The position numbers and the translations under genes are program-made. Below are positions 77 through 5,814 of a stretch of DNA of 64,000 nucleotides, piece after piece. The notes beneath the pieces were generated by a model. It was not told the origin of the DNA. It worked only from the letters and a program-made list of their open reading frames with translations, and ran no database searches. This DNA comes from Escherichia coli (GTDB lineage Bacteria; Pseudomonadota; Gammaproteobacteria; Enterobacterales; Enterobacteriaceae), in assembly GCF_050920415.1 (NCBI RefSeq), contig NZ_CP169309.1. One strand, 5' to 3'. How positions within the stretch are numbered: position 1 is the stretch's first letter; each line of letters starts with the position of its first letter.

Positions 77-1318
<1,242 letters not shown>

Positions 1319-1342
1319 TTACACGTTAATTAGTTTCGAATT

Positions 1343-1369
1343 AAAAAGGGCGCTTCGGCGCCCTTTTTG
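1343..1369 (+). terminator. Rho-independent terminator of str operon (after tufA)
   Basis: GC hairpin GGGCGCTTCGGCGCCC flanked by A-run and followed by TTTTT, 25 bp after tufA stop. Confidence 0.8.
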
Positions 1370-1442
1370 CTGCCCGTAATTTGAGCTCGAAATATTTAGT
1401 CGTAATTTCACTCGCTGAACTATGGCGCAAATTAAACTGTGC

Positions 1443-1467
1443 TATTGTAATCATAACCATTCTCATT
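1443..1467 (+). promoter_or_regulatory. Putative Fur box upstream of bfd-bfr
   Basis: ATTGTAATCATAACCATTCTCATT resembles the AT-rich hexamer-repeat Fur consensus (GATAATGATAATCATTATC); bfd is a known Fur-regulated gene. Confidence 0.4.
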
Positions 1468-1500
1468 TACACTTTGCGCAGAATTTGAACGGGAGCAATC

Positions 1501-1695
1501 ATGTACGTTTGTTTGTGTAATGGTGTAAGTGACAAAAAAATTCGCCAGGCAGTCCGTCAGTTTCATCCGCAATCTTTCCAACAATTGCGTAAGTTTATTC
1601 CTGTGGGAAATCAATGCGGTAAGTGCATTCGCGCCGCGCGCGAAGTGATGCAGGACGAGTTGATGCAGATGCCAGAATTTAAAGAGATTGCCTGA
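1501..1695 (+). CDS. bfd: Bacterioferritin-associated ferredoxin (64 aa, 2Fe-2S)
   Basis: ORF MYVCLCNGVSDKKIRQAV...CGKC; Cys motifs and position directly upstream of bfr. Confidence 0.93.
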   Translation: MYVCLCNGVSDKKIRQAVRQFHPQSFQQLRKFIPVGNQCGKCIRAAREVMQDELMQMPEFKEIA

Positions 1696-1767
1696 AGCCC
1701 ACGCTTATTTTTTGACATCCCGCTAGCCCCATCTACGCTCTAATAGTGGAAGCGGAGGGACTATAAA

Positions 1768-2244
1768 ATGAAAGGTGATGTTAAAATCATAAATTATCTC
1801 AATAAACTATTGGGAAATGAGCTTGTCGCAATCAATCAGTATTTTCTCCATGCCCGGATGTTTAAAAACTGGGGCCTGATGCGTCTCAATGACGTCGAAT
1901 ACCATGAATCTATTGATGAGATGAAACACGCTGATAAATATATCGAGCGTATTTTGTTTTTAGAAGGAATCCCTAACTTACAGGATTTAGGCAAACTGGG
2001 GATTGGTGAAGATGTCGAGGAGATGCTGCAATCCGACCTGCGATTAGAACTGGAAGGCGCGAAGGATCTCCGTGAGGCTATCGCGTATGCCGACAGCGTT
2101 CATGACTATGTTAGCCGTGATATGATGATCGAGATCCTTGCCGATGAAGAAGGTCATATTGACTGGCTCGAAACTGAGCTGGATCTCATCGGTAAAATCG
2201 GTTTACAAAATTACCTGCAATCACAAATAAAAGTTAAAGATTAA
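1768..2244 (+). CDS. bfr: Bacterioferritin (158 aa)
   Basis: [40 protein letters not shown]..., canonical Bfr length and sequence. Confidence 0.96.
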
Positions 2245-2708
2245 CGGCCTGCCAGCAAACTATCCCAGCCTACAACGAAACCCGCAGCCGCCAGAAATGG
2301 CCCAAACGGCAGCGGGTTTTTTAATGACTCTTTTCCTCTCATGAGCAGACCAATAACTACGGCTCCGCAAGCGAATGAGGCAGCAAGGAAAACCAGTCGT
2401 GGCAAGAAGGTCCATGTATGCCAGGCACCAAGGGCGGCGAGAAACTTCACATCACCATAGCCTAATCCTTCTTTATGACGCAGTATGCGATACCCCCAGT
2501 AAATGACAGCGAATGTGCCGTAACCAATAATCGCCCCCCATAACGCATCGGCTAAACCGTCAGGATTACAAATCTGATAGAACAAAAGACCTGACCAGAG
2601 TAACGGGCACGTAAATCTGTCAGGTAACAAGCCATGATTTGCATCCCAGAAAAAAAGTAGGGCTGATAAACAAGCGTACAAAATCAGAAAGGGAAGGGTA
2701 GTGTCCAT
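2241..2708 (-). CDS. hopD: Short prepilin (leader) peptidase, peptidase A24 domain only (155 aa)
   Basis: ORF with multiple TM segments and [14 protein letters not shown] motif typical of type IV prepilin peptidases; occupies the position of gspO next to bfr; stop overlaps bfr stop by 4 nt (convergent). Confidence 0.8.
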
Positions 2709-2881
2709 AAAACATCCTCTGTAATTGGAGTATCACCATCGAATAACTGCGGATGCTCAGCAACAGAGAAATCGCTGATTTGTTAACCTGATTCCGGTGA
2801 AAAACGCTATCTTCACAACCTTACAAATTTCGTGGAATGCAGCTCGCAATCTGCGCGTTGCGATTAATTTCTACCCGATGC

Positions 2882-2909
2882 TTGCGTCAGGCTCAGATTT
2901 GCGTATAAT
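2882..2909 (+). promoter_or_regulatory. S10 operon promoter (-35 TTGCGT / 16-bp spacer / -10 TATAAT)
   Basis: Hexamers at 2882-2887 and 2904-2909; predicted start ~2916 gives a 172-nt leader to rpsJ ATG at 3087, matching the known S10 leader length. Confidence 0.6.
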
Positions 2910-2915
2910 GCGCGG

Positions 2916-3398
<483 letters not shown>

Positions 3399-3418
3399 TC
3401 AGGTCATTGAGCGATTGA

Positions 3419-5814
<2,396 letters not shown>

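Follow-up and report, generated by a model that had tools for sequence, protein, structure and literature searches.

The 64-kb stretch of Escherichia coli DNA analyzed here, referred to below as the window, carries hopD, the gene for a 155-aa peptidase-only prepilin peptidase, in convergent orientation to the bacterioferritin gene bfr and divergent from the S10 (rpsJ) operon promoter (Table 1). The hopD reading frame starts with ATG and is the longest possible one, with an in-frame stop nine codons upstream; a Shine-Dalgarno-like AGAGGA lies 6 nt 5' of the start codon. RefSeq annotates the reading frame as "prepilin peptidase" (WP_000381754.1), and the same gene is known in O157:H7 as hopD or ECs4188 (strain Sakai) and as leader peptidase HopD of O-island 130 (strain EDL933). 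The stop codons of bfr and hopD both fall within a common TTAA at 2241-2244, the 4-nt overlap described in the initial annotation of this DNA; the distance from the hopD ATG to the -35 hexamer of the S10 promoter, put there, about rightly, at ~200 bp, is 173 nt by sequence reading. The hexamers of this promoter, whose identity we take to be established knowledge, are TTGCGT (-35, 2882-2887) and TATAAT (-10, 2904-2909). The window is at least 99.95% identical to NZ_CP169399.1 over all 64 kb, and bases 1400-3400 are 100% identical; the annotation of this near-identical sequence lists no pilus or secretion genes within the 64-kb window, and an N-terminus of the G-F/M-T-L-I-E prepilin type is absent from every window ORF, in agreement with the earlier view that hopD has no cognate secretion or pilus genes nearby. 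An Rfam search of positions 1300-3500 returned nothing. In sum, hopD is an already annotated, intact, conserved and ordinary housekeeping gene of E. coli.

Table 1. Features at the bfr-hopD-rpsJ locus, in window coordinates.
Feature	Position	Strand	Basis
bfd-bfr-hopD segment, 1.5 kb	1371..2902		BLAST junctions, K-12 locus map
bfr (bacterioferritin), convergent with hopD	1768..2244	+	ORF list, sequence, annotation
hopD CDS, peptidase-only A24 (GxGD) prepilin peptidase, 155 aa	2241..2708	-	ORF list
Terminator-like hairpin (2277-2320) with T6 run, downstream of bfr and inside hopD	2277..2322	+	Fold
Codons of G83-Y-G-D86, GxGD motif with the second catalytic aspartate	2451..2462	-	Sequence, alignment
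Codon of D22, first catalytic aspartate	2643..2645	-	Invariant in 122 diverse A24 peptidases
Shine-Dalgarno-like AGAGGA, 6 nt 5' of the hopD ATG	2715..2720	-	Inferred from sequence reading
S10 (rpsJ) operon promoter, -35 to -10, divergent from hopD	2882..2909	+	Sequence

HopD belongs to peptidase family A24 by its profile, its two aspartates and its predicted fold. The only Pfam match of the protein is Peptidase_A24 (PF01478), with 77.1 bits against a cutoff of 26.5 and an E value of 1.7e-21 over profile positions 2-103 of 104; the mechanism of this family has been described previously (PMC3584216). In an alignment of 122 diverse homologs, only D22, G58, G62, G83, G85, D86, and G136 were invariant; D22 and D86, the two catalytic aspartates of the family, are spaced 64 residues apart in HopD and are also kept in 15 orthologs plus GspO. 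A loss of both catalytic aspartates, which the initial annotation had considered as a finding that would speak against its reading, is therefore not what the alignment contains, and the GYGDVKF aspartate motif that it had pointed out corresponds to HopD residues 83-89. HopD is predicted to have the polytopic helical membrane fold of GxGD proteases; the model is a confident six-helix bundle, which, among PDB structures, matches only the GxGD protease FlaK strongly. A search of PDB sequences with the single HopD sequence gave no match, and the same search with a HopD profile gave FlaK alone, at a non-significant E of 6.9; NCBIfam contains no family or equivalog for HopD.

To judge from its sequence, HopD is not a bifunctional peptidase/N-methyltransferase of the PilD/PulO type, as both PF06750 (A24_N_bact) and the CxxC...CxxC site are absent. 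HopD did not match PF06750 even at E values up to 1, whereas PppA and long homologs score 106-118 bits; the HopD N-terminus begins ~20 residues ahead of D22. Upstream of hopD, tblastn detected no remnant of an N-terminal domain, in-frame stops are found there, and the room between the hopD start and the S10 promoter is only ~170 bp; the frame is not extendable and conceals no full-length gspO, which disposes of the wrong start call that the initial annotation had allowed for and leaves its description of a hopD-like A24 core without an N-terminal domain in place. Its statement that the protein is shorter than GspO/PilD-type enzymes with a zinc-binding and methyltransferase region is correct for the forms of 250-300 aa, where PF06750 with two CxxC pairs is found (for example in PppA, 269 aa), but not for the 225-aa GspO of K-12, which has no PF06750 match and no CxxC pairs. 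This K-12 GspO (L002 18826-19503) looks N-terminally reduced itself, since the syntenic GspO of the chiA-bfd-bfr-gsp module elsewhere (L011 10001-10777, L012 10001-10765) is longer, at 254-258 aa, and carries PF06750. The four-cysteine N-domain is required for N-methylation and dispensable for cleavage, and N-methylation is not required for pilus assembly (PMC3584216); TadV likewise lacks the N-domain (PMC10191384).

A search of 1.8 billion representative proteins yielded 6907 relatives of HopD, of which 13, at E<1e-30, constitute the HopD clade; the next-best hits, 220-300 aa in length and of the PilD/GspO type, align through their C-terminal ~135 residues with 40-50% identity. HopD shares 41% identity with K-12 GspO over 138 aa and 38% with PppA, and the HopD clade has 100% bootstrap support in neighbor-joining (NJ) trees. 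An origin of hopD as a truncated K-12 gspO is ruled out by this degree of identity and by the separate, well-supported clade; HopD does not appear to be an ortholog of the T2SS-alpha GspO, and there are no adjacent gsp genes. A second clade of short A24 proteins, 158-164 aa long, is encoded beside rpsJ in Cedecea and relatives (L013 5001-5477, L014 5001-5480, L015 4001-4495), in two of these three loci between bfr and rpsJ; its members share 51-53% identity with GspO-alpha, against only ~38% with HopD. A hairpin-containing spacer parts bfr from the short A24 gene in Cedecea and at locus L014, where the two do not overlap. A search upstream of hopD and of these Cedecea-type genes found remnants neither of gspM nor of an N-terminal domain. 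The node that links the HopD clade, the Cedecea-type short clade and GspO-alpha has only 57% bootstrap support in the NJ tree, with which both a single and a repeated truncation could be compatible as the origin of the short forms; possibly, as an A24 gene convergent with bfr is common to both locus versions, hopD goes back in the deep past to the last gene of a gsp operon. Whichever its deep origin, the gene appears to be maintained and not in decay.

Proteins of 155-161 aa with the HopD motifs occur in Salmonella, Citrobacter, Enterobacter, Lelliottia, Raoultella, Kosakonia, Phytobacter, and Intestinirhabdus, and another species encodes a sister protein of 170 aa at the corresponding position. 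Salmonella, Raoultella, Enterobacter, and Phytobacter have the identical gene order tufA-bfd-bfr-hopD-rpsJ, and the convergence of bfr and hopD recurs in five other genera, where the two genes overlap by 4-24 nt. Between genera, hopD has dN/dS ratios of 0.06-0.27 at saturated synonymous sites; within E. coli the ratio is 0.27. With intergeneric dN values of 0.3-0.45, the gene evolves much faster than bfr, which is far more constrained (dN/dS 0.01-0.06); since the dN/dS of hopD is low, yet that of bfr is lower still, these ratios argue for purifying selection on HopD that is real but looser than on bfr. Nearly all E. coli copies (2252 of 2255) span at least 80% of the gene; shortened variants occur in Shigella and a few E. 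coli (P0031, P0042, P0006). Between the window and O157:H7, the bfr genes (1768-2244 in the window, L001 3369-3845 in O157:H7) differ with a dS of 0.23, much above the values for bfd (0.03) and hopD (0.085). The higher dS of bfr than of both neighbors suggests that the 1.5-kb bfd-bfr-hopD segment is a mosaic of recombined sub-haplotypes.

A promoter scan of the hopD strand found no sigma-70-like promoter; candidates picked by eye were weak and not conserved, and the region upstream of hopD is poorly conserved between genera as a whole. Since no promoter was recognized and the upstream region is poorly conserved, expression of hopD may be very low. A transcript signal for ECs4188 has been reported in O157 arrays; such array signals are perhaps not strand-specific and could reflect read-through from bfr. 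Downstream of bfr, the hairpin listed in Table 1 is the sole terminator-like element; it lies opposite the codons of the most conserved C-terminal motif of HopD. Its fold has a free energy of -25.9 kcal/mol (for a 96-nt stretch), which is not significant against shuffled sequences (z -1.7); five genera conserve the hairpin, and a single compensatory pair, seen in Salmonella, involves an A-to-V change in HopD. This conservation cannot be told apart from constraint on the coding sequence. The spacer between bfr and the peptidase gene in K-12 and Cedecea contains a hairpin of its own. A CRP-S (Sxy/competence) site for hopD, sought as TGCGA-N6-TCGCA with at most two mismatches, was rejected, as the window contains 38 such matches where 40.5 are expected; the sole match within the hopD-rpsJ spacer (2833-2848, TGGAATGCAGCTCGCA, two mismatches; similar in Salmonella, TGGAATCATGCTCGCA) is at chance level and hints only weakly at regulation of hopD by Sxy/CRP.

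The locus between tufA and rpsJ exists in two versions in E. coli. Among 5426 complete genomes, hopD was found in 2255 and K-12-type gspO in 3159; these counts, like those for pppA and ppdD-hofBC below, are totals over genomes and not per-genome co-occurrences, but their sum of 5414 implies that almost all genomes have either hopD or gspO. Consistent numbers were obtained with a 2-kb query from the window, which was matched in full by 2253 complete genomes and only at 60-80% identity by 3158. In place of positions 1371-2902 of the window, K-12 carries ~16.6 kb with chiA, bfd, bfr, gspO-gspC, gspA, and gspB (L002 14954-31591); on either side, the two versions match exactly or almost exactly, through tufA and its terminator up to 1370 and again from 2903. 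The bfr and bfd genes on the hopD side show 82-89% nucleotide identity to those of Salmonella, Enterobacter, Raoultella, and Phytobacter, the usual intergeneric distance, whereas the K-12-type bfr and bfd are outliers with 76-80% identity to all others, hopD-type E. coli included (77-80% between the two E. coli versions); in its bfd promoter region, the window agrees with other genera, but not with K-12. Because its bfr, bfd, and bfd promoter region group with those of other genera, the hopD version is the vertically inherited one, and the K-12 version is an imported alternative; a module similar to chiA-bfd-bfr-gsp of K-12 is present in other species (L011, L012).

The right-hand junction of both versions falls inside the S10 promoter, between the -35 and -10 hexamers. 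From the -10 hexamer (GTATAATGCGCGGG) on, the versions are identical, whereas the spacer and the sequence upstream of the -35 differ, so that E. coli has two spacer and upstream variants of this promoter, the strongest of its ribosomal-protein promoters; the spacer of the window resembles that of Salmonella. The sequence from -10 onward, together with the leader, is invariant across all genera and both E. coli locus types. Just upstream of the -35 hexamer, an inverted repeat at 2844-2863 (TCGCAATCTGCGCGTTGCGA followed by TTAATTTCT) was flagged as terminator-like on the plus strand in a scan; conservation in Salmonella and other genera extends to the sequence TTAATTTCTA that follows, but not to the repeat itself.

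These data bear on the two alternatives that the initial annotation had left standing, an active leader peptidase for a system encoded elsewhere and a decaying remnant of the gsp island. A non-functional leftover of a type II secretion island, with a reading frame still open by chance, would explain why hopD occupies the position and orientation of gspO against bfr, why the N-terminal part of the syntenic 254-258 aa GspO is missing, why no promoter is recognized, and why shortened alleles exist in Shigella; yet such a leftover should not have kept its length, start, catalytic residues, motifs and synteny across genera with saturated synonymous sites at dN/dS ratios well below 1, nor an entire catalytic fold that is confidently predicted, nor near-full length in almost every E. 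coli copy, and the distance from K-12 GspO and the separate clade also speak against it. The remnant reading is thus most improbable, and already appears to be largely refuted by conservation; since hopD belongs to the inherited version of the locus, and not to a degraded K-12 gsp island, decay is not supported.

Conservation and the near-universal presence of a candidate substrate operon instead favor the active peptidase. HopD is probably an active, peptidase-only class III signal peptidase that serves the prepilins of the scattered enterobacterial type IVa pilus/DNA-uptake system without N-methylating them; activity, substrates and missing methylation are what we infer from an intact, conserved gene and its genomic context. 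The six-helix GxGD aspartyl-protease core would reside in the inner membrane, with D22 and D86 as the cutting residues, and would cleave the short basic prepilin leader after its conserved glycine; as the zinc-binding N-domain is absent, the new pilin N-terminus would be left unmethylated. The likeliest substrates would be PpdD and, named from the literature, PpdA, PpdB, YgdB, and PpdC; other prepilins might be matured opportunistically. At the rpsJ-adjacent locus, HopD is the vertically inherited counterpart of GspO in K-12-type strains, and the presence of hopD or K-12-type gspO in almost all complete genomes speaks for functional equivalence of the two. Pilin substrates encoded elsewhere, for which the initial annotation had proposed to look, are on hand: of the substrate operons, ppdD-hofBC was checked, and 5424 of the 5426 complete E. 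coli genomes carry it, consequently including essentially all hopD carriers. O157:H7, which carries hopD and not K-12 gspO at the bfr-rpsJ locus, has been reported to lack both chromosomal T2SS clusters (PMC3707838) and yet to produce pili of PpdD (PMC2649431). Only 3640 of the 5426 genomes contain pppA, the gene for the other prepilin peptidase of the chromosome. Since pppA is this common, and since pO157 presumably encodes EtpO, HopD need not be the actual processor of PpdD in a given strain. Luna Rico et al., in 2019 (Mol Microbiol 111:732), reportedly used EHEC DNA, including a single-gene 'gspO' locus, to reconstitute the type IVa pilus of this pathogen; we take this 'gspO' to be probably hopD, as O157:H7 has hopD at this locus.

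Prepilin peptidases are promiscuous, as illustrated by the cleavage of PulG, PilE, and PpdD by PppA (PMC4971541), and LngA in ETEC is partly processed by an unidentified chromosomal peptidase; many hopD strains possess other systems as well. The real clients of an active HopD could on these grounds be the pseudopilins of type II secretion systems (T2SS-beta, plasmid-borne etp) or the type IVb pilins of plasmids and islands, and not the PpdD/Hof/Ppd proteins. This appears unlikely to us, considering that hopD is kept at one locus across genera and strains whatever their T2SS content, and that ppdD-hofBC is near-universal in E. coli, unlike pppA and its T2SS-beta cluster; the two roles are compatible with each other and not mutually exclusive. 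A shift of HopD away from pilins altogether, toward intramembrane proteolysis of other substrates or toward a non-catalytic scaffold, would accord with its orphan position in the window, its fast evolution outside the motifs, the missing N-domain, and the missing NCBIfam equivalog; however, every residue that is invariant in bona fide prepilin peptidases is retained, the closest sequence relatives are of the PilD/GspO type, and there is no positive pointer to another substrate, which makes such a shift very unlikely.

The type IVa prepilin peptidase role of HopD can be tentatively extended into an evolutionary scenario that is possible, though rather doubtful. HopD would then be a dedicated, unmethylating type IVa leader peptidase, and HopD and GspO-alpha would form a long-lived trans-species polymorphism whose alternatives are swapped by homologous recombination through the ultra-conserved flanks, the tufA terminator and the S10 promoter; by the same tentative account, E. 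coli would keep one function in the form of two deeply diverged, non-orthologous versions. Within this scenario, T2SS genes at the rpsJ-adjacent locus may have been lost repeatedly while the catalytic core was spared, with the Cedecea clade as a further instance, and the bfr terminator inside hopD could couple the expression of hopD to the transcription of bfr.

Little is at stake here in terms of discovery, as hopD is annotated and the A24 family is well understood. The 'orphan' status of hopD is to be expected, since the type IVa pilus genes of enterobacteria are distributed among several loci. As a natural minimal peptidase of the PilD type, HopD could show directly whether the type IVa pili of enterobacteria can do without N-methylation, and could become a compact pilin-maturation tool in engineered strains. 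For the interpretation of E. coli genomes, the useful point is that the hopD version of the locus is the inherited state, and the chiA/gsp version of K-12 the outlier.

Among well-known systems, PilD of Pseudomonas aeruginosa, PulO, and PppA differ from HopD in carrying PF06750 with its CxxC...CxxC site, but their last ~135 residues align with HopD at 38-50% identity and contain the same invariant D...GxGD. The archaeal preflagellin peptidase FlaK (PDB 3S0X), the structural match, has only 19% sequence identity to HopD, and neither archaellum nor tad/flp contexts appear around hopD in the window annotation. A relation of HopD to the Flp prepilin peptidases TadV, CpaA, and FppA was considered from architecture and gene context: the short peptidase-only form is common to both, but the window has no tad/flp locus, and the nearest sequence relatives of HopD are of the PilD/GspO type. 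K-12 GspO (T2SS-alpha) resembles HopD in its A24 core, in both aspartates, and in its position and orientation convergent with bfr, and the two genes are mutually exclusive across E. coli genomes, as judged from the totals; in contrast to HopD, GspO has ~72 extra N-terminal residues and is encoded by the last gene of a gspC-O operon, and a 28-nt hairpin spacer separates gspO from bfr where hopD overlaps it. HopD of Salmonella enterica is 65-67% identical at the protein level, has the same length of 155 aa, and is encoded in the same tufA-bfd-bfr-hopD-rpsJ context with the same 4-nt overlap with bfr. The closest counterpart is hopD of O157:H7, the same gene with 96-98% nucleotide identity to that of the window; the proteins differ in a few residues only, for example in the C-terminal LLIGR of O157:H7, which reads LLAGR in the window.
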